64,000 nt of DNA, from sequence record MT764208.1. The stretch is one strand, 5' to 3'. The stretch is from Escherichia phage JEP8. Positions within the stretch are counted from its first letter, which is position 1; the number at the start of each line of letters is the position of its first letter. Position numbers and translations under genes: made by a program. Shown here one piece after another: positions 621-64,000 of the stretch. Below the pieces are notes generated by a model, which searched no databases, had not been told where the DNA came from, and saw only the letters and a program-made list of their open reading frames with translations.

Positions 621-660
621 TGTTTGATTCTCCTAAGTGGTATCTCGTCTTGATGGTTGT

Positions 661-689
661 ATTGTAGGGGAGTTATCCTCCCCTGTCAA
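661..689 (-). promoter_or_regulatory. early sigma70-type promoter TTGACA-N17-TACAAT with palindromic spacer
   Basis: spacer GGGGAGGATAACTCCCC; A/T-rich tract upstream; drives 369..620. Confidence 0.6.
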
Positions 690-703
690 CACTTTTTATA
701 AAA

Positions 704-871
704 TTATTTGTTAATTTCTGGTGCGTTGCTAGGATAGTAACCTTCTTTAACTCCGAGGTATTTCGCAACCATCCCTACAATCTTCTGTGCTACTACAATG
801 TCAAATTTCAGATAATCTTCGCCGTGGGTTTCAATGATATATGCTTCACATGCTGCTTTAGTCTCGAACAT
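704..871 (-). CDS. hypothetical 55-aa protein, copy 1 of a duplicated gene (MFETKAACEAYIIETHGEDYLKFDIVVAQKIVGMVAKYLGVKEGYYPSNAPEINK)
   Basis: below the 60-aa track cutoff; hand-translated; near-identical to 3962..4129; RBS and promoter cassette upstream. Confidence 0.5.
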   Translation of the reverse strand: MFETKAACEAYIIETHGEDYLKFDIVVAQKIVGMVAKYLGVKEGYYPSNAPEINK

Positions 872-904
872 TTTGATTCTCCTATTTCGTTTCGGTATGT
901 GTGT

Positions 905-933
905 ATTATAGGGGATCTCCCGATCCCCGTCAA
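905..933 (-). promoter_or_regulatory. early promoter TTGACG-N17-TATAAT with palindromic spacer GGGATCGGGAGATCCCC
   Basis: consensus hexamers, 17-bp spacing; drives 704..871. Confidence 0.65.
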
Positions 934-947
934 CAACTTTTTTAAAA

Positions 948-1229
948 TTATTCGTGATTAGTTTCGATGTTGTGCATTTTGCACCAATTCAGCCAATCAC
1001 CCAGATCCTGATAGTTAATGCTTTTATCTGCTGCCATCGTTTTTGTCTTGATACCCATATGTGCGTTATGAGTAAGCATTTTTACAGTGAACTCAATTTT
1101 ATCGCCTTTAGCTTTAACATCAACCAGTTTGGTCCACTGGCTACCAGCGCCGCGAATGTTCATACCAACGATGTTTCCGATGTATGCTTCTTTGTTTTTC
1201 AGGATTTCGGTTGCTTTGATGAATTTCAT
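948..1229 (-). CDS. hypothetical small early protein (93 aa)
   Basis: ORF with upstream promoter cassette (1263-1291) and RBS. Confidence 0.5.
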   Translation of the reverse strand: MKFIKATEILKNKEAYIGNIVGMNIRGAGSQWTKLVDVKAKGDKIEFTVKMLTHNAHMGIKTKTMAADKSINYQDLGDWLNWCKMHNIETNHE

Positions 1230-1262
1230 TTTTGATTCTCCAGTTCGTTTCGGTATGGGTGT

Positions 1263-1291
1263 ATTATGCTATGTTCTTACTTTGGTGTCAA
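1263..1291 (-). promoter_or_regulatory. early promoter TTGACA-N17-CATAAT
   Basis: consensus -35, 17-bp spacer; drives 948..1229. Confidence 0.55.
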
Positions 1292-1299
1292 CAACTTTT

Positions 1300-1569
1300 T
1301 TAGATATTTTCAGAAATAAATTTTAAAACTTGACGTAAATGTTTCTCATCTTTGATAGTCGCCGGAAGTTCTTCTTTTACTTCCTGTGCAAGATAGATAT
1401 TTCCGTTCCAAGTGAAAGATCCGTCTTCGTTTACGCGATAGCTGAACATCCACTCGCAATCATTTTCGATTTCATATACACACAGAAGAGTGTAATCTTC
1501 AAAGCTATTGAGTTCAAGGTCGAAGCCGTGACGTTTTGCAAAGTTGGTAGTGGTTTTAGTCAGTGCCAT
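1300..1569 (-). CDS. hypothetical small early protein (89 aa)
   Basis: ORF with upstream promoter cassette (1610-1638) and RBS. Confidence 0.5.
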   Translation of the reverse strand: MALTKTTTNFAKRHGFDLELNSFEDYTLLCVYEIENDCEWMFSYRVNEDGSFTWNGNIYLAQEVKEELPATIKDEKHLRQVLKFISENI

Positions 1570-1609
1570 TGTTTGATTCTCCTAAGTGGTATCTCGTTTC
1601 GATGTGTGT

Positions 1610-1638
1610 ATTATGCTATAGGCGTGATCTGGTGTCAA
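1610..1638 (-). promoter_or_regulatory. early promoter TTGACA-N17-CATAAT
   Basis: drives 1300..1569. Confidence 0.55.
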
Positions 1639-1660
1639 TGCCTTTTTTAAAATTTTATGC

Positions 1661-1689
1661 AATAAAAAAGCCGACACTAAGGTCGGCTA
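1661..1689 (-). terminator. intrinsic terminator after 1696..2004
   Basis: hairpin AGCCGAC-N6-GTCGGCT followed by T6 on the minus strand. Confidence 0.6.
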
Positions 1690-1695
1690 ATAAAA

Positions 1696-2004
1696 TCATT
1701 TAGACAAATAATCATTCTGTGCAATCCGGTCGGCGTATGCTGGTGTTATGTCAATCGCCAGCACTTTAACGCGTGCTTTCTTGCGACCTGGGTTTTCTCG
1801 TAACCAGTGCTCATGGCCGTGAACATTTTTATACTGCGATGCTTCTTCGAAGGTACGGATCGGACCTGGGTAATCAGCGTAAAGGATCTCTAGATCTTCG
1901 GTGATGTAAAAATATACATCGTAATTGCTGTTCTCTAGCTTAAGCAGAGACTTTCGGAACATTGGGAGATTTTCGCGGGTAAATTCAAAGATATTATCTT
2001 TCAT
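1696..2004 (-). CDS. hypothetical protein, member 1 of a six-member paralog family (H-x-H-W ... V-L-A-[VI]-D-[VI] motif)
   Basis: shares ordered motifs Y-x-Y-[IV]-x-E/D, HxHW and VLA(V/I)D(V/I) with 2422, 2705, 3426, 4198, 4757; terminator hairpin downstream. Confidence 0.55.
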   Translation of the reverse strand: MKDNIFEFTRENLPMFRKSLLKLENSNYDVYFYITEDLEILYADYPGPIRTFEEASQYKNVHGHEHWLRENPGRKKARVKVLAIDITPAYADRIAQNDYLSK

Positions 2005-2052
2005 AGTATTATCCTCAATAGTTGGATGAAAAGGGGCTTAACGCCCCGTATA

Positions 2053-2340
2053 TTAAAACAGTCCTTCCTGTACACCGTAGTAGAGTTCATCGCTGATAAT
2101 TTCATTAATGCGACGGTGTGCATATTCCTGATTTGCGAAGTTGTCAGCAAGTTCTACTTTAGTTTCGCCGTCATGAGTCCATTTAGTGATAACTTTACCA
2201 TCGGCAAATTTGAAGTTGAACTCTTTAGCTACCGCATCGCGTACCAGACGTGCGAACTTGTTGTTACGGATTGCATTATCGGTTTCGTGTGCAGCGTGAG
2301 CAAATTTGTTAACTTTCAGAGTGATGGTGATGTATGCCAT
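2053..2340 (-). CDS. hypothetical small early protein (95 aa)
   Basis: ORF with promoter cassette 2387-2415 and RBS; AKEFN segment weakly shared with 5346..5657. Confidence 0.5.
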   Translation of the reverse strand: MAYITITLKVNKFAHAAHETDNAIRNNKFARLVRDAVAKEFNFKFADGKVITKWTHDGETKVELADNFANQEYAHRRINEIISDELYYGVQEGLF

Positions 2341-2386
2341 AATTTGATTCTCCTAGTTAGAAAGTGTATCTCGTTTCGATGGGTGT

Positions 2387-2415
2387 ATTATGCTATACAC
2401 CCGATCTTATGTCAA
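2387..2415 (-). promoter_or_regulatory. early promoter TTGACA-N17-CATAAT
   Basis: drives 2053..2340. Confidence 0.55.
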
Positions 2416-2421
2416 CACTTT

Positions 2422-2700
2422 TTATAAAATAATTTTTTGATATTTTTCTATGATGTTTGTGTAGGTCACATCAACCGCGAGCACCGTTGCTTCGAATCCA
2501 CCGTTTAGCCAATGGCTATGATCGTGATCGTTAAAGAAACCGAGGCCAGTGCGAAGACCTTCTTTATATTCGGCGCGTACATTCAGTTTGTCGTCGATAA
2601 ACAGATAAAACCATGAATTTTTACTAGGATTGATGATACAACCTTTCAGATTAGGGAGAATATCACGACTAAGAATAAACTTATCACCTACTTTGAACAT
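2422..2700 (-). CDS. hypothetical protein, paralog family member 2
   Basis: start trimmed to ATG at 2700 (MFKVGDKF...), preceded by GAGGA; motif HDHSHW...VLAVDV. Confidence 0.55.
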   Translation of the reverse strand: MFKVGDKFILSRDILPNLKGCIINPSKNSWFYLFIDDKLNVRAEYKEGLRTGLGFFNDHDHSHWLNGGFEATVLAVDVTYTNIIEKYQKIIL

Positions 2701-2704
2701 AATA

Positions 2705-3025
2705 TTAGTCCTCACTTATAAGGTCAAACCAATTGTTTTTCGCATAATGCTTAATGCGTGCTTGATCTGCTTCCGCTGGTGATAGATTCCATGCAACCAC
2801 TACAACTTCTGACGCATCGTCATCCGTTTTTGATACCCAATGATTGTGATTCATACAGTTATTTGCTATCGAGTGAGCAAATGATTTCATCACTGGAGAC
2901 GTATAATCATAGTAACGGATTTTCAGATTTTCATCAACATACAAGTAGATCGTATACGGCTTATATTCAGTAACCAATAACAGACAGTTACGCAATTCTG
3001 GGAAAATCTTTTTAGTTAATTTCAT
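2705..3025 (-). CDS. hypothetical protein, paralog family member 3
   Basis: motif NHNHW...VVVVAW; same length class and orientation as other members. Confidence 0.5.
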   Translation of the reverse strand: MKLTKKIFPELRNCLLLVTEYKPYTIYLYVDENLKIRYYDYTSPVMKSFAHSIANNCMNHNHWVSKTDDDASEVVVVAWNLSPAEADQARIKHYAKNNWFDLISED

Positions 3026-3239
3026 ATTCTAGTTCTCCGTAATACACAGTAATCCATTTTTCTTCATACTTTGTATCTTTCCAACACACAATCCCGTTTA
3101 CTGTGCAATCTTTGGAATTGACGAATGATTCATATTGTTCTGCATCTTCCATCATTGCATGAGCGGTCTTTTCATCGAATATATCGCAGATCGCTTTATA
3201 TGCTCGATAATCTTTAAATTTGCTCATAATTAACACCAC
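3012..3239 (-). CDS. hypothetical protein, MSKFK tandem paralog A
   Basis: N-terminus MSKFKDYRAY and central IVCWK shared with adjacent 3230..3445. Confidence 0.5.
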   Translation of the reverse strand: MVLIMSKFKDYRAYKAICDIFDEKTAHAMMEDAEQYESFVNSKDCTVNGIVCWKDTKYEEKWITVYYGELEYEIN

Positions 3240-3961: not shown

Positions 3962-4129
3962 TTATTTGTTAATTTCTGGTGCGTTGCTTGGATAGTAACC
4001 TTCTTTAACACCCAGATATTTTGCAACCATTCCGGTGATCTTCTGTGCTACTACGATATCGAATTTCAGGTAGTCTTCACCGTGGTTTGCTACAATGTAT
4101 GCTTCGCATTCTGCTTTAGTCGGGAACAT
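3962..4129 (-). CDS. hypothetical 55-aa protein, copy 2 of duplicated gene
   Basis: track ORF trimmed to internal ATG (MFPTKAECEAYIVANHGEDYLKFDIVVAQKITGMVAKYLGVKEGYYPSNAPEINK); about 85-90 percent nt identity to 704..871 by eye. Confidence 0.5.
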   Translation of the reverse strand: MFPTKAECEAYIVANHGEDYLKFDIVVAQKITGMVAKYLGVKEGYYPSNAPEINK

Positions 4130-4163
4130 TTTTGATTCTCCTATATCTCGTTGGTATGTGTGC

Positions 4164-4192
4164 ATTATAGGGGATCACCGATCCCCTGTCAA
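4164..4192 (-). promoter_or_regulatory. early promoter TTGACA-N17-TATAAT with palindromic spacer GGGGATCGGTGATCCCC
   Basis: drives 3962..4129. Confidence 0.65.
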
Positions 4193-4197
4193 CAACT

Positions 4198-4491
4198 TTA
4201 TAATGCTTTATATGCGTATTTCATAAATTTGTCTGCCACTTCATTGGCATGTTCAGCTTCTACGCCTGATTCGAGAACAATAGCTAGGTCGGTTTCGTCA
4301 TTCCCGCCGTACCAATGATTTGATGTTCGATTTTTTTCAATTGGAAATTGGTCACTTTTATCTGTGCGACAAAATACATCTAAATGCTCGTCGATGTAAA
4401 AGATCCAATCTTCATAAAGAATAACGGTATTAGCCAGATTTTTATTGCCTTCAACGAAAGGTTCGGCTACAAACAAATTAGTATGTTCCAT
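4198..4491 (-). CDS. hypothetical protein, paralog family member 5
   Basis: start trimmed to ATG 4491 (GAGGA upstream); motif SNHWYGG...LAIVLE. Confidence 0.5.
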   Translation of the reverse strand: MEHTNLFVAEPFVEGNKNLANTVILYEDWIFYIDEHLDVFCRTDKSDQFPIEKNRTSNHWYGGNDETDLAIVLESGVEAEHANEVADKFMKYAYKAL

Positions 4492-4507
4492 AGTAATTTC
4501 CTCAAAA

Positions 4508-4699
4508 TTATACAGCTTCGTAAACTTCCCAATGTCCAACACCAGCACGCTTAACGAAAAGGTTTTCTTTGATGTTATTCATAAACGTCTGGATGGATTT
4601 AATGCGGTTTGAAGGTTTCCATTCTTCGTTGGCATTGCGTCGATACATCATAACATTACCAGTTCGCTTATATTCAGCAACCATTTTAAGACCACACAT
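4508..4699 (-). CDS. hypothetical small protein (63 aa)
   Basis: ORF between family members; putative promoter 4751-4778 upstream. Confidence 0.4.
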   Translation of the reverse strand: MCGLKMVAEYKRTGNVMMYRRNANEEWKPSNRIKSIQTFMNNIKENLFVKRAGVGHWEVYEAV

Positions 4700-4750
4700 A
4701 ATATTATCCTCAATTTGTGGGAGAGTATTACCCCTCCCAATGATTGTTAT

Positions 4751-4778
4751 GTTATATCACACAAAATGGCGTGTCAAT
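4751..4778 (-). promoter_or_regulatory. putative early promoter TTGACA-N16-TATAAC
   Basis: weaker -10; upstream of 4508..4699. Confidence 0.35.
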
Positions 4779-5077
4779 GCTTCTTTTGCGGTTCCGCTAA
4801 GACTTTCGATCTCGCCTGGCATAACATCAACCGCCAGAACTTCTACAACATCCTCGGACCCTAACCAGTGAGTATGACCTTTGTAGAACTTGATAACCAG
4901 ACTACCTTCCTCGTCCCATTTAACGCTATCGCTAGCCCACCACACATCACCGTCGATAAAGTTGATGTAAAGCACACTACGCCACATTGAATTAATTACT
5001 TTCAATACTGCGCCTTTCATCTCTTCCACGGTATGGTCTTCCATTTTGAAGACCTCACCTACCTGAACTTTTGCCAT
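4757..5077 (-). CDS. hypothetical protein, paralog family member 6
   Basis: motif GHTHWLG...VLAVDV. Confidence 0.55.
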   Translation of the reverse strand: MAKVQVGEVFKMEDHTVEEMKGAVLKVINSMWRSVLYINFIDGDVWWASDSVKWDEEGSLVIKFYKGHTHWLGSEDVVEVLAVDVMPGEIESLSGTAKEALTRHFV

Positions 5078-5094
5078 TTAGTCACCTCTCTTTA

Positions 5095-5274
5095 TTACAT
5101 AACAATCACGCCAGCCGTTGAAAGTTGATGTTTCAACTGAGCATTTTCTGCTACCGTCAAATCAATGATTTCTTGTGACGCTGCAATCATATATCCATTG
5201 GTGATATTGTTTTGCATCAGTTCAATGGTTTCTTCGTTGTAGCGGATTTTAGCGATGATTTCGTTGAAGTTCAT
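5095..5274 (-). CDS. hypothetical 59-aa protein
   Basis: track ORF trimmed: N-terminal MLTGDHRSPIL is read-through of the promoter cassette; real start MNFNEII... after GGAGAATC. Confidence 0.45.
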   Translation of the reverse strand: MNFNEIIAKIRYNEETIELMQNNITNGYMIAASQEIIDLTVAENAQLKHQLSTAGVIVM

Positions 5275-5308
5275 GATTGATTCTCCTAGTTCGTTTCGGT
5301 ATGTGTGT

Positions 5309-5337
5309 AGTATAGGGGATCGGTGATCCCCTGTCAA
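5309..5337 (-). promoter_or_regulatory. early promoter TTGACA-N17-TATACT with palindromic spacer GGGGATCACCGATCCCC
   Basis: drives 5095..5274. Confidence 0.6.
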
Positions 5338-5345
5338 CAACTTTT

Positions 5346-5657
5346 TTAAAGTTTTTCCATGATAACGGTCATAATTACATCTTCTGCGCGAGCGGTCAGA
5401 TTATCAGCGTCAGCATGTGGGCGGTTGGTTGTTACAGAGATAACACCGTTGCGCACTGGTTTGATATTGATATCAAGATGATCCGCGAAACGTTCGCCAG
5501 TTACAGAATGAATTTTGGTGTTAAATTCTTTTGCCAGTGCCTTGCGAACTTCACGAATCAGGGTAGCGTTTTTCAGTTGGTTCTCCGCGCTCATGGTCTT
5601 CTGGGTGTTAATGGTTCCGTCGAAGTCAATCATTGGCAGCGTTACGATGTATTTCAT
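5346..5657 (-). CDS. hypothetical small early protein (103 aa)
   Basis: ORF with promoter cassette 5703-5731 and RBS. Confidence 0.5.
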   Translation of the reverse strand: MKYIVTLPMIDFDGTINTQKTMSAENQLKNATLIREVRKALAKEFNTKIHSVTGERFADHLDINIKPVRNGVISVTTNRPHADADNLTARAEDVIMTVIMEKL

Positions 5658-5702
5658 TTTTGATTCTCCGTTTAAGAAAGTGTGTTTCGTTTTGATGTGT
5701 GT

Positions 5703-5731
5703 AGTATAGGGGATACGTGATCCCCTGTCAA
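5703..5731 (-). promoter_or_regulatory. early promoter TTGACA-N17-TATACT with palindromic spacer GGGGATCACGTATCCCC
   Basis: drives 5346..5657. Confidence 0.6.
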
Positions 5732-5744
5732 CAACTTTTTTGAA

Positions 5745-6221
5745 TTATTTTTCTTGATGCTCGCGCTCGTACTTTTCGAAATAAAATTCTACTGGCTGGT
5801 CATGAATTGACAGCAAGCCAAAGCGTTTAGCCGCTCGCAATCCCATATTGCGCTGAATGTACTTCTGGAAGTTCTCGCGTATACACTTACGCCAGTATTC
5901 TAAGCCCATACAGCTTTTATAAAGATTGCATTGCACACACGCCGGATTCATGTTATCAAGTATATCATGCTCCGGTTTATGCATTCCTACGACCTTATAC
6001 TTCCACAATCCATCATCATTACGGGCAATTCGTCCATTTTCATCATAGACTACCTTTGAGCGTCGCAATACTGGTTTGATGTGGTCTGCGTGCCAGCGAT
6101 CCCCTAGTTCCTCGCCACAATAGGCACAACGTCCACCGTATTTCATTTTCAGGATCTGGCGTTGCTCTTTCTTTGACAATTTTTTAGGTTTAGGGGCTTT
6201 CGCCCCTTCATTATCACACAT
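5745..6221 (-). CDS. HNH-family endonuclease (free-standing)
   Basis: C-x2-C ... H-A-D-H-I-K-P ... C-V-Q-C-N signature; directly downstream of ligase; true start may be internal Met (MKYGGR...). Confidence 0.6.
   Translation of the reverse strand: MCDNEGAKAPKPKKLSKKEQRQILKMKYGGRCAYCGEELGDRWHADHIKPVLRRSKVVYDENGRIARNDDGLWKYKVVGMHKPEHDILDNMNPACVQCNLYKSCMGLEYWRKCIRENFQKYIQRNMGLRAAKRFGLLSIHDQPVEFYFEKYEREHQEK
6192..6207 (-). promoter_or_regulatory. RNA stem-loop GGGGCGAAAGCCCC (GAAA tetraloop) at the ligase 3' end
   Basis: same element as at 18921-18936 and 31041-31056. Confidence 0.45.
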
Positions 6222-7710
6222 CGAATACCTCTTTTACTGTATTTGCAGTGGTCTTGTCGTAGCGAATACGTTTGATGATTGGGAGAAATAAAGAGAACTC
6301 CGGTTCATCTTCTTTACGTGATTTGCTGCGAATGTACCCGTTGCATGTCATCTCAATGACTTTTCCAATCAGGTTATGACGGTCAGCCCATAACATTTCT
6401 CGGTCGAGTTCATTTCGACTATCGAACGGAATTACACGTTCGATACCATCATCACCTTTTTCGGTTGTGGTGTCGGTCAATCCCGATCCGGTGTTAGTCA
6501 TCATTCGTCCGCACGCACTACGGACAGTAAAACCGCCTACCTTATTAGGATCTTTACTATGCGGATATACATCAACAATTTCCGCGTCGAAGTCAATCAC
6601 TTCTTTAAATTTAACCTGATCTTTACTGCGACGATCTTCAAATACACCATGCAGATTTTTAAGGATAATACCTTCTAATCCCATGTTTACATAGCGATGA
6701 TATACTTCGCGAGCTTCATCGAGATTGTTAACTACGGTATTTTCGATTATCTGAACACGAGGATCGTTAAGTTCTTCAACAATCTGTTTTAGTTCTTCGA
6801 ATCGATCTTTATACTGCTTCGTTGCTTTCTCGTTACCGTAGTACACATCACGGTCGATAACATCCCAGACAGTGTAAACAATACATTGGGCTTCTTCTTT
6901 TGGAATAGTTCCTTTCAGTGATTTGTTGAGGATACCATTTCCGGTCTGACGATCTGCAACAACGGATTCTTTCACTGCTTCCGCTACTGGCGTTAATGGC
7001 ATTTCCTCTTCTTCAAATATCCATGACAGAGTACCATCATAAACGCTCTCAACGAAGTTCTGCGCTGGTGTTTGCGAAAGGGTAGGCATATATACCAATT
7101 CGCCATCTAGAACAATTCCACGGCCTCGTAGACGCTCTAAAACCGCAAACAAATCATCAAGCCCTTGATAGGTATTACCTGAGCGGGTATAGATTGCTAA
7201 TGTTTCCCCGTCAATATCAGCCATACCACGAGCGCCATCGCTTTTAAGTTGTGCATACGCCGGATACTTGATATTAGCAATAGTCTTATCAGAACATGAC
7301 GATGCAAGGTGGCACGGTTGCTGAGGGATCAGTTTCTTCCATACCTTGTTTGCAGTGGTAGCGGAACAGCCGCATTCCAGATCACGATTCAGGACCATCA
7401 TTGCAACTTTAGCATCATCCTCTGACAAGCAAGTCAGAGTATCGGTAACTAGTTGTAATGCTGCATTACCAGTTACTTGACGCGTGGCAAGTTTATTTTT
7501 AAAGACCTGTAATGCACCGGATAAAGACAATACAGACGAATAGCGAGATGGTTTATCGTATTTCTTTACGCCAAACGTAACCTGTTTGCAATATGCCAGA
7601 TAAAAGCATTCTTTCAGCGTTTCATTGCTCGCGGATTCTTTCAGAATCTTTTCTTTCAGCGATGTTTTGTCTGTTGCTGCAAGCTGATTAATGATATTAA
7701 GAATTGACAT
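6214..7710 (-). CDS. 30: ATP-dependent DNA ligase (T4 gp30 homolog)
   Basis: clear similarity along the length to T4 DNA ligase as recalled (KADGAR lysine motif, C-terminal LEGIILKN, KFKEVID); track start is GTG, trimmed to ATG 7710 preceded by GAGGTGA. Confidence 0.9.
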   Translation of the reverse strand: MSILNIINQLAATDKTSLKEKILKESASNETLKECFYLAYCKQVTFGVKKYDKPSRYSSVLSLSGALQVFKNKLATRQVTGNAALQLVTDTLTCLSEDDAKVAMMVLNRDLECGCSATTANKVWKKLIPQQPCHLASSCSDKTIANIKYPAYAQLKSDGARGMADIDGETLAIYTRSGNTYQGLDDLFAVLERLRGRGIVLDGELVYMPTLSQTPAQNFVESVYDGTLSWIFEEEEMPLTPVAEAVKESVVADRQTGNGILNKSLKGTIPKEEAQCIVYTVWDVIDRDVYYGNEKATKQYKDRFEELKQIVEELNDPRVQIIENTVVNNLDEAREVYHRYVNMGLEGIILKNLHGVFEDRRSKDQVKFKEVIDFDAEIVDVYPHSKDPNKVGGFTVRSACGRMMTNTGSGLTDTTTEKGDDGIERVIPFDSRNELDREMLWADRHNLIGKVIEMTCNGYIRSKSRKEDEPEFSLFLPIIKRIRYDKTTANTVKEVFDV

Positions 7711-59508: not shown

Positions 59509-60921
59509 TTAGAAAGTCATGGTATTTGCTAGCTCGTCGAGTTTTTCGCGTTTCTCGGCTTGCTGTGCGCTTTGTGGTTTAACTTGTGCATTCTCCTGAT
59601 CTGCGATCTGGTTTGGTACTTCATACCAACGCTGATTGCCTTTCTTCACACCAACGTTAAACCGTGAATAATAGTTCTTATCACCGTAACGAGACTTGAT
59701 CTGCTTCATGAGTTGGACGCCCATTTTAGCCAGGTCTTCGGTTTCGATAACACCCAACATAAAGTCGGCAGTAGCCGGAAGACCTGCTGATTCAGCGGTA
59801 TCACTCATGTTAAGGTCGGAAGCATCCCAACCCGCGCGGGTAGTCTGTGCCGCAGTCCAACCAACAACATCCCACTTAACAAAAAATCCTCGCAGTTCTT
59901 CCGCAATCGCCTTAACTAGTGTGTAACTATTTTCAGAGTATACACGCAAGCGAGACGATGCGCAAATCCCCAGATAGTCAACAATCACAACATCAGGTTT
60001 AAACTGTTTCTTGAGTCGCAATTCATTCATTAACGCCTCAAAGTGATTGGAGTTCGCGCCACCAGTCGGATACTGCTTGATCATCAATTTTCCAACCGGA
60101 CGATCTCCGATCTTCTTATTCTTAACACGCTTCATGCGTGCGGAATATTCCGCAAAAGAAACATTACCATTATCCAATTCATCTAATGTAATGTCAAGCA
60201 AGTTTGCGTCGATACGTTTTGCTACTACATGCTCTGCCATCTCCATTGAGATATACAATACATCATAACCACATTCCATATAATCCGCAGCAAGAGAACA
60301 CAAGCCAAGCGATTTACCAACGTTTACACCAGCAAGCAACACATTTAGCGTTTTTCTTTCCGCCCCTCCTTTCGTGATTTTATTCAACATCGGCAGCTTA
60401 AACGGGATCTTATTCGCCTTAGTCTGATATAGCAAGAATCGTTTTTCAAAGTCATTAAACCAGTCATGACCTACATCAGAATCAAACGTAATGGATAGTG
60501 CTTCCTGCATGATCTCAGGAATAGCACCCTCACTCGGCAATTTCTTATTCTGTTTCTCTTTTGGTAGTTGTGCGTTCGCCTGAATCTCTAGCGCCCGTGA
60601 CATTGCATTATACATGGCACGGTCACGAATAAATTTTTCGGTTTCCTTCATTAACCAATCAAGGTCTTCCGGTGTATTCTCAAGCGAATCAAGAAGAGTT
60701 TTAGCCCCTTCATATGTTGTCTGATTGCCTCTCTCCTTGTCTAAAGCAATCTGTAATGCAGTTGGCGTAGGAATATTGGAATATTCGTCTACGTGCTTTT
60801 TAATCAGCTTATAAATCAGTTTTTCTTCGTCTTCGGTGAAGTAGTCCGCTTTAAGGTGAGGCCATACATTCGTAAAGAATGCGCCATTGTAAATCAACTG
60901 TGAAAAGATAGTTTTAATCAT
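59509..60921 (-). CDS. 41: replicative DNA helicase (T4 gp41 homolog, DnaB-like)
   Basis: 470 aa; Walker A GVNVGKS and RecA-like core; between 61 and uvsX as in T4. Confidence 0.9.
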   Translation of the reverse strand: MIKTIFSQLIYNGAFFTNVWPHLKADYFTEDEEKLIYKLIKKHVDEYSNIPTPTALQIALDKERGNQTTYEGAKTLLDSLENTPEDLDWLMKETEKFIRDRAMYNAMSRALEIQANAQLPKEKQNKKLPSEGAIPEIMQEALSITFDSDVGHDWFNDFEKRFLLYQTKANKIPFKLPMLNKITKGGAERKTLNVLLAGVNVGKSLGLCSLAADYMECGYDVLYISMEMAEHVVAKRIDANLLDITLDELDNGNVSFAEYSARMKRVKNKKIGDRPVGKLMIKQYPTGGANSNHFEALMNELRLKKQFKPDVVIVDYLGICASSRLRVYSENSYTLVKAIAEELRGFFVKWDVVGWTAAQTTRAGWDASDLNMSDTAESAGLPATADFMLGVIETEDLAKMGVQLMKQIKSRYGDKNYYSRFNVGVKKGNQRWYEVPNQIADQENAQVKPQSAQQAEKREKLDELANTMTF

Positions 60922-60923
60922 AC

Positions 60924-61235
60924 TTATCCCCCAACTACACGCATAACAAAGGTCTTAAGTTTATACCAGAAAGTTTCCTTTTTCAACTTTTCTTCTGCTT
61001 CTTTGATCTGCGCGGTTAACGCCTTAATGATGTGAGGATATACCACATCACGATCTGACGGCGTGGAGTAGTCGACCACAATACCTTTAGTGTCTGGATC
61101 GTATTCAACATTATGAATATAGACAATATGATGTTCTCCCTCTTCATCAACAATTATCAGTTCCTGAATAACTGTCTTCATTGCTTCTTGAATCAAGCCG
61201 TGTGCTTCTTCTAAACTTGTTGGTTTCTTATCCAT
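60924..61235 (-). CDS. hypothetical protein in gene 40 position (possible gp40 homolog)
   Basis: 103 aa with hydrophobic C-terminus; positional inference only. Confidence 0.4.
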   Translation of the reverse strand: MDKKPTSLEEAHGLIQEAMKTVIQELIIVDEEGEHHIVYIHNVEYDPDTKGIVVDYSTPSDRDVVYPHIIKALTAQIKEAEEKLKKETFWYKLKTFVMRVVGG

Positions 61236-61261
61236 AATATAATCCTCTCAGTAAAAATCTC

Positions 61262-61290
61262 ATTTTACTACTTTAATTATTCTATGTCAA
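61262..61290 (-). promoter_or_regulatory. promoter TTGACA-N17-TAAAAT upstream of gene 40 position ORF
   Basis: consensus -35, 17-bp spacing. Confidence 0.5.
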
Positions 61291-62026
61291 CAAATTTCCA
61301 ATTTGGAAAGTCTGGACACATACAACGACGGCGAACGGTTCCGCGCTCGTTTCCTAGTACCTTAGATACTTCCGATACAGATTTATAGATCACACCATCA
61401 ACAGATACAGCCTTTCGGTCTTTTCTGTTTTGTTTCTTGCTCTTTTCTCGTCTGGCTTCGACATTCTCCGAATCATTCCATTGTCTCTTTGCTGTCTCGC
61501 GGGAAGATATTGTCTTTTGTTCTTTAACAATATCTTTAACAAGTTGTTCTTGTCCTGTTATCTTCGCCCACACATTAACAGACTGAATAGCATTAGCCTC
61601 ACTCATTCCCCAACGTTTACCGGATATATTCTTACGACGAACGCGTAGAAATTCGTTAAAGACTTCTTCGCATTGGTGCATATAATCACGAAAACCATAT
61701 TTCTTAGCCCATGCCTCTTTAATTGCACCAGACATATTTTCGGCAATACGTCTACGCACCCATGCATACTCCTTATTATTGCGACCGTGACTGGTCATAC
61801 ACATCATACGTGCAGCCATAATAAGACCAACATTCTTAGGATACATTTTAGCTAACAATAAGTGAGCGGTAAAGTGTTCCTCCGGTGTCAATGGAACGAG
61901 ATTTTCCTGTTCATCCGTGCCGCCCATACAACGTGGTTTAACGTGATGGATCTCTATGTATCCGGTCGGCTTCTCTCGGTTTCTTGCTCGTTCAATCAAT
62001 CTTTCGTAATGTGTTTTGTAGTTCAT
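61277..62026 (-). CDS. HNH homing-endonuclease-like protein (free-standing)
   Basis: YIEIHHVKPRCMGGTDEQENLVPLTPEEHFTAH HNH motif plus C-terminal DNA-binding-like module (SVDGVIYKSVSEVSKVLG); start ambiguous (ATG 62038 or 62026). Confidence 0.65.
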   Translation of the reverse strand: MNYKTHYERLIERARNREKPTGYIEIHHVKPRCMGGTDEQENLVPLTPEEHFTAHLLLAKMYPKNVGLIMAARMMCMTSHGRNNKEYAWVRRRIAENMSGAIKEAWAKKYGFRDYMHQCEEVFNEFLRVRRKNISGKRWGMSEANAIQSVNVWAKITGQEQLVKDIVKEQKTISSRETAKRQWNDSENVEARREKSKKQNRKDRKAVSVDGVIYKSVSEVSKVLGNERGTVRRRCMCPDFPNWKFVDIE

Positions 62027-62039
62027 GTGATCCTCCATA

Positions 62040-62064
62040 TGAAAAAGGGGCATAAAGCCCCTTA
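62040..62064 (-). terminator. intrinsic terminator after uvsX
   Basis: hairpin GGGGC-UUUAU-GCCCC followed by TTTTTC; overlaps the annotated start region of the HNH gene. Confidence 0.55.
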
Positions 62065-62077
62065 ACTGCCACTGATA

Positions 62078-63148
62078 TTATGCTAACATATCCTCGACTT
62101 CTTTGTCAACTGCTTCGTCGCTGATAACTTGACCTAACTGATAGTGATCGTTGATCGCTTTCTGGAAGTGTTCATTGGTCAGAAGTGGTTTCCAAAAATC
62201 AACACTATCCGTTTCTTTAGCGCGGAACTTGCGGTCTTCGGTTTCCATTTCTCCTGTTTCAGCATTCAGGATTGAGCGAGAATACCAACCATTCGACGGT
62301 TTAACAATCCAACCCAACTCGATAGCCAGTTCAAGCAATCCAGAGTAAGGATCAATGCCACCGCTAAAGGTTACGCTAATCGGGAACTTCGATTTTTCTT
62401 TAACGGTTCGTGATTTTTCCGCATTCAGGATAAAATCATAACCAGTAATTTCGGTTCCTTCTTTCTGCTGACGACGGCTAATAATGAATACTTCGTTTGC
62501 ACTGTACATACCACCAGTACCACCCGACATAATCTCTTTCGGATACAGAGACATTTCAGAGTAAGTATGGTTAATAGCGATGCACGGGATATCATTCATA
62601 GTCAGATAAGGTGTCATCATACGGAACAAGCCTTTAAGTGCTTTAGCTCGCGTCATATCCTGCGCTGATTTCTCATTAATCGCGTCTTCAACTTCTTTTT
62701 TGCTTGCCAAGTTACCGATTGAGTCGATAAAGATGATCACTTTATCTTCACGGGTAATTTGCTCAAGCTGGTTCATGATTTCAAATTTAAGTTCTTCGAT
62801 GTTCTTGATTGGAACATGCACCACGCGATCAGGATCTACACCCATAGATGACAGATAAGCGGACGTAATACCGAACTCAGAATCAAAGAACAAACACGCC
62901 GCATCAGGATTCTGTTTCATGTATGCACTAACACAAGTTAATCCCATGTTTGATTTAAAGTGCTTAGACGGACCAGCAAAGAAAATCAGACCAGATTGAA
63001 AGCCCTTTTTAAGATCACCTGAAAACGCAATATTCAGCATCGGGATCTTAGTGCGAGTATTTGTTTTTTCGTTAAAGAAGCTGGATTTAGACAGTACCGC
63101 AGTAGTTTTCAGGGTAGAGTTCTTTTTCAGTTTTTCCAGTACAGACAT
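62078..63148 (-). CDS. uvsX: UvsX recombinase (RecA-like)
   Basis: TKIPM.NIA.SG...G.QSGL...AGPSK.FKSN, FYDSEFGIT.AYL.SMGVDP.RV, IDS.GNLASKKE.EDA.NEK match T4 UvsX. Confidence 0.92.
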   Translation of the reverse strand: MSVLEKLKKNSTLKTTAVLSKSSFFNEKTNTRTKIPMLNIAFSGDLKKGFQSGLIFFAGPSKHFKSNMGLTCVSAYMKQNPDAACLFFDSEFGITSAYLSSMGVDPDRVVHVPIKNIEELKFEIMNQLEQITREDKVIIFIDSIGNLASKKEVEDAINEKSAQDMTRAKALKGLFRMMTPYLTMNDIPCIAINHTYSEMSLYPKEIMSGGTGGMYSANEVFIISRRQQKEGTEITGYDFILNAEKSRTVKEKSKFPISVTFSGGIDPYSGLLELAIELGWIVKPSNGWYSRSILNAETGEMETEDRKFRAKETDSVDFWKPLLTNEHFQKAINDHYQLGQVISDEAVDKEVEDMLA

Positions 63149-63159
63149 TATTAATACCT

Positions 63160-63387
63160 CTATTCAGTTAATCCGTAATACTTTAATTGCTTCATTGTTA
63201 TTCGATCTTTGTAGTGCTCTTGAATTAACTTTTTCATCGCATCAACATCGATCGTCACAAATACTTCGTTGCTGTGATTTCCGTGAACTTTCTTGAAATG
63301 CTCTATGCCTTCCTCACGTTCACGTTTAATCTTTTCAATGTCTCTCATAATATATTTCTCACATTGGCGGGTATCGTAACCCAACAC
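63160..63387 (-). CDS. hypothetical protein (75 aa)
   Basis: ORF upstream of uvsX. Confidence 0.45.
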   Translation of the reverse strand: MLGYDTRQCEKYIMRDIEKIKREREEGIEHFKKVHGNHSNEVFVTIDVDAMKKLIQEHYKDRITMKQLKYYGLTE

Positions 63388-63409
63388 CCGCCATTATACA
63401 CACTTTATC

Positions 63410-63979
63410 TTAAATGTCAAACAGGTCCGTAAGCGATGCCACCTTTTCATATTGCAGCTTTGCAGCCGTGGTAATGTTCTCCAGTGGTTTGACGAAAGTC
63501 TTATTAAACAACAAAGGCCAGTCTAACCACTTTAACACCTCGCTTTCAATCTCTGGAGGAATACGAGTACCGGACAACCAACCAAAACAGATTTCTCCAA
63601 ACGGATTTCGATCTTTCAGCGGTACAATCATAACCTTCTCGCCTTCACGAATCGGATCTAGTCCGAATTTTCGAGCATTACGATTATAACACAATACACT
63701 CTTAACCGCATACGGACAACCCTTAATCGGATACCCGTTTGAATCGCTGTATTTCTGTAGGTTGTTTGCAGATGATACCGCAGCAACATCAAGATAGTCA
63801 AGTTTTCTAAATTCTTGCTCAAAAATACCGTAGTATTCCTGCAATGACTCTTCACCTTCCTGCAACATACGGCGAATACATTCTTTCAGTGATTTCTGAC
63901 ATGCTTTCGGGGTGGAGCTACGTTGCGTTTCCAAGCCCATGATTTTTAGCTTAGGTTCAGCAAAGCGCGTTCCTTCCAT
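63410..63979 (-). CDS. hypothetical protein (189 aa; start near window end is uncertain)
   Basis: ORF at window edge; not similar to T4 beta-glucosyltransferase as recalled. Confidence 0.4.
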   Translation of the reverse strand: MEGTRFAEPKLKIMGLETQRSSTPKACQKSLKECIRRMLQEGEESLQEYYGIFEQEFRKLDYLDVAAVSSANNLQKYSDSNGYPIKGCPYAVKSVLCYNRNARKFGLDPIREGEKVMIVPLKDRNPFGEICFGWLSGTRIPPEIESEVLKWLDWPLLFNKTFVKPLENITTAAKLQYEKVASLTDLFDI

Positions 63980-64000
63980 ATCCCAAACATTAAGAGCATA

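Follow-up and report, generated by a model that had tools for sequence, protein, structure and literature searches.

A free-standing Mob-type homing endonuclease gene beside uvsX in Escherichia phage JEP8 and the UvsX L2 loop as its candidate target

The gene considered here, which we abbreviate HE (homing endonuclease gene), lies between uvsX and gene 40 in a 64,000-nucleotide stretch of DNA from Escherichia phage JEP8 (MT764208.1); "the window" in what follows means the whole of this stretch, and HE+ and HE- denote phages with and without the cassette that carries the gene. The closest described systems are the free-standing endonucleases of the T4 Mob family (MobA-E), among which MobB is closest to HE in sequence and MobE is the characterised member. 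With these genes HE shares an N-terminal catalytic domain starting MNY...HHIxPRCMGGxDxxxNLVxLTPEEHxxAH, a free-standing position between conserved genes in the same orientation, a patchy occurrence among relatives, a 5′ terminator and, at the 3′ end, a promoter for the gene downstream; consensus scans detected no promoter for HE itself. Insertion by a terminator, dependence on upstream transcription and a downstream-gene promoter within the endonuclease open reading frame (ORF) are described for the T4 seg and mob genes (PMC2988022, PMC2790892), and the match of the terminator, the expected read-through and the embedded promoter to those genes supports the reading of HE as a homing endonuclease. 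HE differs from the T4 mob genes in its location, since the uvsX/40 locus is unoccupied in T4, where uvsX overlaps gene 40, and in its I-TevI-like C-terminus (PF20987), which does not resemble the C-termini of MobB, MobC or MobD. It also differs from mobE in that the terminator lies inside the mobE coding region and upstream of the real start of HE.

The model put forward for MobE and nrdB, in which the proposed target lies in a neighbouring conserved gene at functionally critical codons that are polymorphic in HE+ phages (PMC2790892, PMC2988022), has a counterpart at this locus. uvsX is already known as a homing target through T4 SegA, which is likewise a free-standing endonuclease adjoining uvsX and is reported to cut within it (PMC2988022). 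SegA is a GIY-YIG enzyme encoded 5′ of uvsX, between beta-gt and uvsX, whereas HE encodes an HNH enzyme and lies 3′; no sequence similarity between the two was seen, and none is expected. With I-TevI of the T4 td intron HE shares a C-terminal helix-turn-helix domain and the layout of nuclease, linker and DNA-binding part, but I-TevI has a GIY-YIG catalytic domain and is intron-encoded, whereas HE is of the HNH type and its uvsX is uninterrupted. Distant homologues of HE occur inside uvsX in the arrangement of the fractured genes of Dassa et al. (2009); in the window, by contrast, uvsX is intact and without an intein, and HE follows its stop codon. The fractured genes published in 2009 carry GIY-YIG or Vsr-like endonucleases, include neither uvsX nor HNH endonucleases, and led their authors only to predict that HNH enzymes could act likewise (PMC2677866).

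HE itself is an ordinary free-standing homing endonuclease of a T4-like phage, and it is already annotated as "HNH homing endonuclease" in Shigella phage Sf20 and as "homing endonuclease" in the RefSeq record of KFS-EC. A full-text literature search for "UvsX" together with "split intein" returned only PMC2677866 and, within the incomplete coverage of that literature, we found no description of a specialisation for the UvsX L2 loop or of a uvsX gene split by inteins around an HNH endonuclease. Our analysis of the sequence makes it likely that HE is an active, free-standing Mob-type homing endonuclease cassette, and we lean towards the view that its target is the DNA coding for the conserved L2 loop of UvsX, which corresponds to window positions 62566-62513 and lies some 500 bp 5′ of the cassette.

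The cassette and its protein

HE is far from being conserved in all relatives at this site, since only 4 of the 58 phage records that match the flanks carry it, namely Sf20, KFS-EC (present twice) and pEJ01. In the remaining listed records the gap from uvsX to gene 40 is about 55 nt, with a clean indel junction, and the record spans are 1008-1014 bp as against 1801 bp in HE+ records. The junction comparison that had been proposed in the preliminary description of this DNA shows that a single exact insertion separates filled from empty sites. The empty site reads ...CCCCTTTTTCATAT-CTA-GAGAGGATTATATTATGG (gene 40 side), or in a longer form ...GCCCCTTTTTCATAT-CTA-GAGAGGATTATATTATGG(gene 40), and the filled site reads ...CATAT-GGAGGATCACATG...TTTTTACT-GAGAGGATT. 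The insert starts 8 nt after the T-run of the uvsX terminator and brings its own Shine-Dalgarno sequence. Its GC content of 40-44% is like that of the flanks, and no foreign base-composition signature was seen in the cassette. The sporadic cassette, the Mob-type protein and the insertion beside a terminator together bear out the earlier reading of the gene as a free-standing homing endonuclease, and the ORF that had been placed between uvsX and gene 40 is there, as an intact 249-aa ORF on the minus strand.

The encoded protein is best described as a Mob-family HNH endonuclease with a swapped-in DNA-binding module of the I-TevI type. The HNH motif noticed at the outset, YIEIHHVKPRCMGGTDEQENLVPLTPEEHFTAH, is found at residues 23-55 of the 249-aa form and has the pattern EIHH(27,28)...N42...H51..H55, which aligns with the McrA and Cas8-HNH cores. 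Residues E25, H27, H28, P31, C33, G35, G36, L46, H51 and H55 are invariant in 55 homologues and N42 is nearly so (at least 90% conserved). In BLASTP, residues 1-106 are 52% identical to T4 MobB (E = 4e-35), and about the same stretch (the first ~106 residues) is 37% identical to MobD (5e-21) and 39% to MobC (4e-19); the PHROGs match is phrog_655, "homing endonuclease" (1.2e-50). In the AlphaFold2 model (predicted local distance difference test score, pLDDT, 91) strands 25-28 and 43-46 and helix 48-61 form a beta-beta-alpha unit; helices make up the middle of the protein, and a small domain forms its C-terminus. Foldseek pairs the model with the HNH domains of 8ydb_J and 8w1p_G (Cas8-HNH) at a probability of 0.92-0.94 and weak E values of 0.5-1.2. 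The DNA-binding-like module that the preliminary description had placed at the C-terminus corresponds to the Pfam I-TevI_DNA-bd domain (PF20987; 28.9 bits vs a cut-off of 27, residues 198-245), and the top Foldseek match is the I-TevI DNA-binding domain itself (1i3j_A; probability 1.00, root-mean-square deviation 1.0 Å over 43 columns). The window, Sf20, KFS-EC, pEJ01 and the metagenomic contig L005 all have an unbroken ORF. Measured against Sf20, KFS-EC and the divergent copy in L005, the ratio of nonsynonymous to synonymous divergence (dN/dS) is 0.10, 0.13 and 0.24, respectively, which shows that HE is under purifying selection. An HK97-type packaging-associated HNH protein was also considered and was ruled out by the genomic context and the clear Mob homology.

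The start of HE had been described as overlapping the uvsX terminator, with the first in-frame ATG in the loop of the hairpin and a better start just downstream. The longest ORF, of 258 aa (61277..62053), begins MPLFHMEDHMNYK; the end coordinate of 62064 given earlier takes in the hairpin as well. Its first in-frame ATG (62053-62051) has the A and the T in the loop, while the G is the first base of the 3′ stem. The better start is present as described, with GGAGGA at 62036-62031 and ATG at 62026, and we take this ATG as the true start because 11 of 11 aligned homologues begin MNY or MDY there and because Sf20, KFS-EC and pEJ01 annotate a 750-nt coding sequence. The 258-aa form was rejected, its extension being found in no homologue, so that the overlap with the terminator holds for the over-long ORF only and the true start lies outside the terminator. 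GGAGGA is kept in Sf20 and KFS-EC and reads GGAGAA in L005.

The hairpin (AAGGGGC-TTTAT-GCCCCTT followed by TTTTC; a 7 bp stem with 5 G-C pairs and a 5-nt loop, 62063-62045) is the only terminator-like site that the terminator scan found in 60800-63500. The terminator belongs to the phage backbone and not to the insert, because it is conserved and annotated in relatives without HE: an identical stem is annotated as a terminator in the HE- phages GEC-3S and G2494, with loop bases that differ between HE+ and HE- phages. We also considered that the hairpin might sequester the ribosome binding site, as in I-TevI and Aeh1 mobE, and found this unsupported, as the minimum free energy fold separates the terminator from the Shine-Dalgarno sequence (z-score -1.5).

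Consensus scans, which give predictions only, detected no promoter between the terminator and the HE start, so that HE is probably expressed from transcripts that pass the uvsX terminator. Of the strong promoters upstream, the nearest, with 12/12 consensus matches at 63420-63393, lies 5′ of the 75-aa ORF that precedes uvsX, and RB49 annotates an early promoter at the matching site. No late-promoter motif TATAAATA lies near HE, and the motif occurs in the window in 3 copies against a chance mean of 4.9. The outward promoter at the end of the cassette has its -35 hexamer inside the last HE codons; it is kept in Sf20, in KFS-EC and, despite a differing HE C-terminus, in L005, it appears as TTGACA-17-GATAAT in the distant contig L006, and it is absent from empty sites. 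A further sigma70-like sequence (TTGACA-18-TAGCAT with an upstream TG, 10/12) was noticed in the last uvsX codons (window 62080-62109, minus strand); it is conserved in HE- phages as coding sequence, and a transcript from it would run into the terminator hairpin. No Rfam family was found in 60500-63600 and there was no sign of an intron or known regulatory RNA; an intron-encoded arrangement does not apply, the flanking genes being uninterrupted.

The diverged 3′ half of uvsX

The linkage of HE to a diverged part of uvsX was seen in an alignment of 14 Krischvirus loci, comprising nine HE- loci and five HE+ sequences in three lineages (the window and Sf20; KFS-EC and pEJ01; the metagenomic L005). 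The flanks are 93-100% identical across the aligned loci, and the 5′ half of uvsX and genes 40 and 41 are 95-100% identical to those of HE- relatives, whereas between the window and HE- phages the 3′ half of uvsX (62620-62078) is 78-91% identical. All nine HE- loci share one 3′ allele (97-100% identity), and the three HE+ lineages have distinct 3′ alleles that are 74-85% identical to one another and to the HE- allele. Synonymous divergence (dS) is 0.8-1.6 in the 3′ half, 0.15-0.23 in the 5′ half and 0.05-0.09 in gene 41. Because this high dS goes with a dN/dS of ~0.1 in the 3′ block, the HE+ alleles are old alleles under selection and not the product of decay. A search for the donor of the window's 3′ allele among sequenced phages found none beyond Sf20; 57 records are 80-90% identical to it and the others at most 80%. 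The 3′ half of uvsX is a hot spot of recombination in Krischvirus and is linked to a mobile element.

On the downstream side the divergence ends exactly at the cassette edge. On the upstream side, when a change-point model with two rates is applied, the block begins at 62617 (window, Sf20), 62588 (KFS-EC) and 62585 (L005), with support intervals that overlap at 62628-62561 and a roughly four- to ten-fold increase in rate. This start corresponds to uvsX codons ~195-197, and the segment after His195 is one which, from what is known of RecA and UvsX structures, we take to be the L2 DNA-binding loop. At the position of codons 195-212, T4 and the HE- Krischviruses have NHTYETQEMFSKTVM; the HE- Krischviruses encode INHTYETQEMFSKTVM, identical to T4 UvsX, and the canonical L2 DNA of RB49 and T4 is ~90% identical over the ~50 nt of the loop by our own count. 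The HE+ alleles instead encode NHTYSEMSLYPKEIM (window, Sf20), NHVYSSMDLYPKDIM (KFS-EC) and NHTYLTQELYSKTVM (L005). In a tblastn search of the phage collection the variant peptide was found in four HE+ records only, while ~50 other Krischvirus records were canonical. In 6 of 6 lineages with a free-standing HE beside uvsX (the window at 62545-62553, L102, L019, L005, L006 and KFS-EC), Tyr replaces the Phe of EMFSK, and it does so via different codons.

Homologues at intact and fractured uvsX genes

The genomic context was examined for eight of the closest metagenome homologues, P0003-P0010 (the contig of P0002 was too short), and all eight sit at uvsX. Free-standing copies just downstream of an intact uvsX occur in the contigs L005, L006 and L019 and in L102 from IMG/VR. 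The L005 protein is 55% identical to that of the window and its ORF ~65% identical at the DNA level, whereas the ends of the cassette (the Shine-Dalgarno and promoter regions; L005 5001-5765 vs window 61250-62036) are 96-97% identical, so that divergent HE alleles occupy one common cassette frame. L006, a distant T4-like contig of 153 kb, has the SEMSLYPKEIM loop of the window with many synonymous differences; a frameshift breaks its HE (5001-5740) at about residue 160 (tblastn frame 3, then frame 2), which may reflect either a decaying copy or an assembly error.

In eight further lineages the homologues, which are 33-45% identical to the window HE, lie between split-intein halves that interrupt uvsX. 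The split falls at NH(T/I)Y-x^TQE in seven of them (L007/8/9, L020, L021, L022/23, L026, L027 and L033). There the N-terminal ORF ends ...NH(T/I)Y-x and continues with CGT(E/K)xM..., the N half of the intein; HE comes next, followed by the C half of the intein, which ends ...ISHN and is followed by TQEMFSK... or TQELYSK... In L024 the split lies 12 codons further on, at VMSGG^TGPMYS. Between these two sites of intein insertion lie the same L2 codons that differ in the Krischvirus HE+ alleles. When fused, the intein halves score above the cut-off of the Pfam Intein_splicing model (41.7 and 41.9 bits vs 35.8), and their best match in the PDB is the gp41-1 split intein. The uvsX gene of the window is one 356-aa ORF without Hint motifs.

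Association with uvsX is not general among Mob-like endonucleases, as uvsX lies within 3 kb in 5 of the best 80 Mob-like IMG/VR loci. In four of these five (L026, L027, L033, L102) HE adjoins uvsX and the similarity extends beyond the catalytic domain; in L030, where only residues 1-108 match, uvsX is ~2.6 kb off on the opposite strand. The other loci among the best 80 lie elsewhere, for example between nrdA and nrdB like mobE.

Two of the fractured loci have additional peculiarities. The uvsX N-piece in L023 (654-1688; also L022 2921-3955) opens with an apparent intein C-end (...GIIHHN|TGFTLL...) in the P-loop region, so that uvsX in L022/L023 may be interrupted at two sites. In L024, ~265 nt (1504-1770) without a called gene separate uvsX pieces that end ...AINH* and start MYRTYETQEMYSK; this gap at the NH^TY position is an unexplained interruption besides the split intein 14 codons on.

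The window belongs to a Krischvirus (RB49-like) whose closest match is Sf20, at 96.8% identity. From the ORF list, Pfam and PHROGs, every gene in the region 58.4-64.0 kb lies on the minus strand, in the order gene 43, 75-aa ORF, uvsX, HE, gene 40 and gene 41, with gene 40 directly downstream of the cassette. The coordinates are collected in the table. Gene 43, inside which the window stops (63410-64000), is annotated in two pieces or with an inserted ORF in L014 (JSE; 4924-7008) and L017 (kvi), and likewise in L011 (ELT4), L013 (G2494) and L005 (674-3617).

Table. Coordinates of HE, its neighbours and the fractured uvsX loci.
Feature	Sequence	Positions	Strand	Basis or remark
DNA polymerase gene 43, 3′ end	window	63410-63979	-	
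75-aa ORF	window	63160-63387	-	
uvsX, RecA-like recombinase, intact, 356 aa	window	62078..63148	-	PF21134 4.8e-33; PF00154; phrog_97 1.1e-94
Hyper-divergent uvsX 3′ half, HE-linked	window	62078..62620	-	alignment, dS, change-points
uvsX codons 195-212, L2 region, variant allele NHTYSEMSLYPKEIMSGGTG	window	62513..62566	-	proposed immunity polymorphism
uvsX intrinsic terminator, hairpin 62063-62045 plus T-run	window	62041..62063	-	terminator scan
787-bp HE cassette	window	61250..62036	-	junction alignment; CTA in its place in HE- relatives
Shine-Dalgarno GGAGGA, 4 nt 5′ of ATG 62026; first bases of the insert	window	62031..62036	-	
HE coding sequence, 249 aa plus stop, true start ATG at 62026	window	61277..62026	-	ORF list, homologue N-termini
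HNH (beta-beta-alpha-metal) catalytic core, residues 23-55	window	61862..61960	-	alignment, model, McrA/Cas8-HNH
I-TevI-type helix-turn-helix DNA-binding domain, residues 198-245	window	61292..61435	-	PF20987, Foldseek
Outward sigma70-like promoter TTGACA-17-TAAAAT, facing gene 40	window	61262..61290	-	11/12 matches
Gene 40, head vertex assembly chaperone	window	60924..61235	-	PF11113 1.2e-24; phrog_999 5e-30
Gene 41 helicase	window	59509-60921	-	
Fractured uvsX	L007 (also L008, L009)	4074-6297		
Fractured uvsX	L020	549-2784		
Fractured uvsX	L021	3058-4678		
Fractured uvsX	L023 (also L022)	654-3090		
Fractured uvsX	L026	2080-4228		
Fractured uvsX	L027	2067-4370		
Fractured uvsX	L033	2084-4381		
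Fractured uvsX	L024	920-3646		

Target, alternatives and implications

We favour the L2-coding DNA as the target because the change-points of the three HE+ lineages all fall together at 62628-62561, because the variant L2 sequences are confined to HE+ records and because the close HE homologues examined all lie next to or inside uvsX. The fractured loci are also relevant, since an endonuclease associated with an intein should cut alleles without that intein at the point of insertion, and these comparisons suggest that the HE clade originally targeted the L2-coding DNA. Weak transcription of HE would start at the early promoter at ~63420-63393 and run through the uvsX terminator, and in a mixed infection the enzyme would nick or cut the uvsX allele of HE- phages; MobE appears to nick (PMC2790892). 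Recombinational repair from the HE+ genome would then carry over the whole stretch that reaches from the break to the far end of the cassette, the embedded outward promoter would keep genes 40 and 41 expressed, and the HE+ genome would itself be immune through its recoded L2 codons (SEMSLYPKEIM). In the wider form of this proposal, to which we would give an even chance, the HE clade is dedicated to the L2 region of uvsX, exists in two interconvertible states, either nested between split-intein halves at L2 or free-standing 3′ of an intact uvsX, and gains immunity by rewriting the loop from ETQEMFSKTVM to SEMSLYPKEIM.

Several observations weigh against our interpretation of the protein or of its target. 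The Pfam check suggested in the preliminary description returned PF20987 above its cut-off, but the HNH model (PF01844) fell below its gathering threshold, with 17.5 bits vs a cut-off of 21.4 (E = 0.0047). The full-length Foldseek comparison with the PDB gave no match with E ≤ 0.001, all values being at least 0.2, so that only the per-domain matches are informative, and a PDB sequence search gave weak HNH-core matches only (McrA, E = 0.035). NCBIfam gave nothing useful, the best match being the IscB HNH (E = 5e-4), far below cut-off. The Pfam shortfall reflects the loss of zinc-binding Cys pairs in this subfamily, the motif itself still being there, and the homologue P0003, at the orthologous site, does pass Pfam HNH (22.3 bits). 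With regard to the target, L102, whose homologue is free-standing, has an almost canonical L2 protein sequence, the intein-associated P0007-P0011 have a different C-terminal DNA-binding region, so that their specificity may differ, and the HE+ lineages within Krischvirus are few, namely three. Between the window and KFS-EC, moreover, dS is 0.23 for HE but 0.99 for the 3′ half of uvsX, and identity climbs toward the cassette, from 71% at L2 to 89-95% beside HE; this pattern would be expected if the break lay closer to the cassette, or if HE+ phages had later recombined with one another.

An alternative explanation is that the same enzyme recognises and cuts DNA near the insertion point, either within the final ~100 bp of uvsX or in the terminator/intergenic region. 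The L2 divergence would then be older allelic mosaicism that hitch-hikes with the cassette, and the insertion together with nearby polymorphisms would disrupt the site. I-TevI-type enzymes bind at the insertion site and cut ~25 bp away, a geometry that would suit such a target. Fixed differences between HE+ and HE- phages are found near the insertion as well, at 62140-62126 and at 62072-62053 (a TAT indel and the terminator-loop bases) in all five HE+ sequences, and the comparison of the window with KFS-EC, in which identity rises toward the cassette and HE has been shared more recently than the 3′ half of uvsX, also favours it. What a target beside the cassette does not predict is a 5′ block edge that falls within ~50 bp in three independent lineages and matches the insertion point of the split intein and HE in the fractured genes. 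A further point against it is that the amino-acid replacements at L2 fall in a motif which T4 and RB49 share exactly. For these reasons we consider a target near the insertion point rather unlikely, and the L2-coding DNA remains the target that we favour.

The interpretation of HE as an active mobile element has itself to be weighed against the possibility that it is an inactive or decaying remnant, kept by linkage and no longer cutting. Homing endonuclease genes commonly degenerate after fixation, the L006 copy is frameshifted and T4 carries Mob genes of undetermined activity (Table 1, PMC2988022). The intact ORF in all five HE+ sequences, the dN/dS of 0.10-0.24, the full set of invariant catalytic-core residues and the fold predicted with high confidence are not what is expected of a remnant, and a cassette that is unfixed in the genus (4/58) is in the phase where an active endonuclease is expected, which together make decay very improbable. 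It could also be proposed that the nuclease has been recruited to a role other than homing, such as exclusion of competitors or recombination near replication genes, with its own mobility incidental. Marker exclusion and flanking recombination driven by the T4 seg and mob endonucleases are documented (PMC2988022, PMC2790892), homing endonuclease genes have been proposed to mobilise neighbouring essential genes (PMC10448857), and the diverged uvsX 3′ half always travels with HE. Such a role is hardly distinct from homing, however, since one cut gives both effects; the sequence gives no hint of an extra function and 54 of the 58 related records manage without HE, so that we regard this as the least credible of the alternatives.

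The interpretation of HE as an active cassette directed at L2 provides a concrete target prediction, the L2 codons of uvsX ~500 bp from HE, together with natural "immune" alleles of a recombinase DNA-binding loop whose activity could be measured against that of the canonical loop. In the taxonomy and phylogeny of Krischvirus, the 3′ half of uvsX also calls for caution. The link between free-standing Mob endonucleases and fractured uvsX could supply new natural split inteins and, if our interpretation is correct, uvsX fractured around an HNH-type endonuclease would be a previously undescribed class of fractured gene. If it is correct, a selfish nuclease would be driving the protein-level diversification of the very recombinase that its own homing needs.

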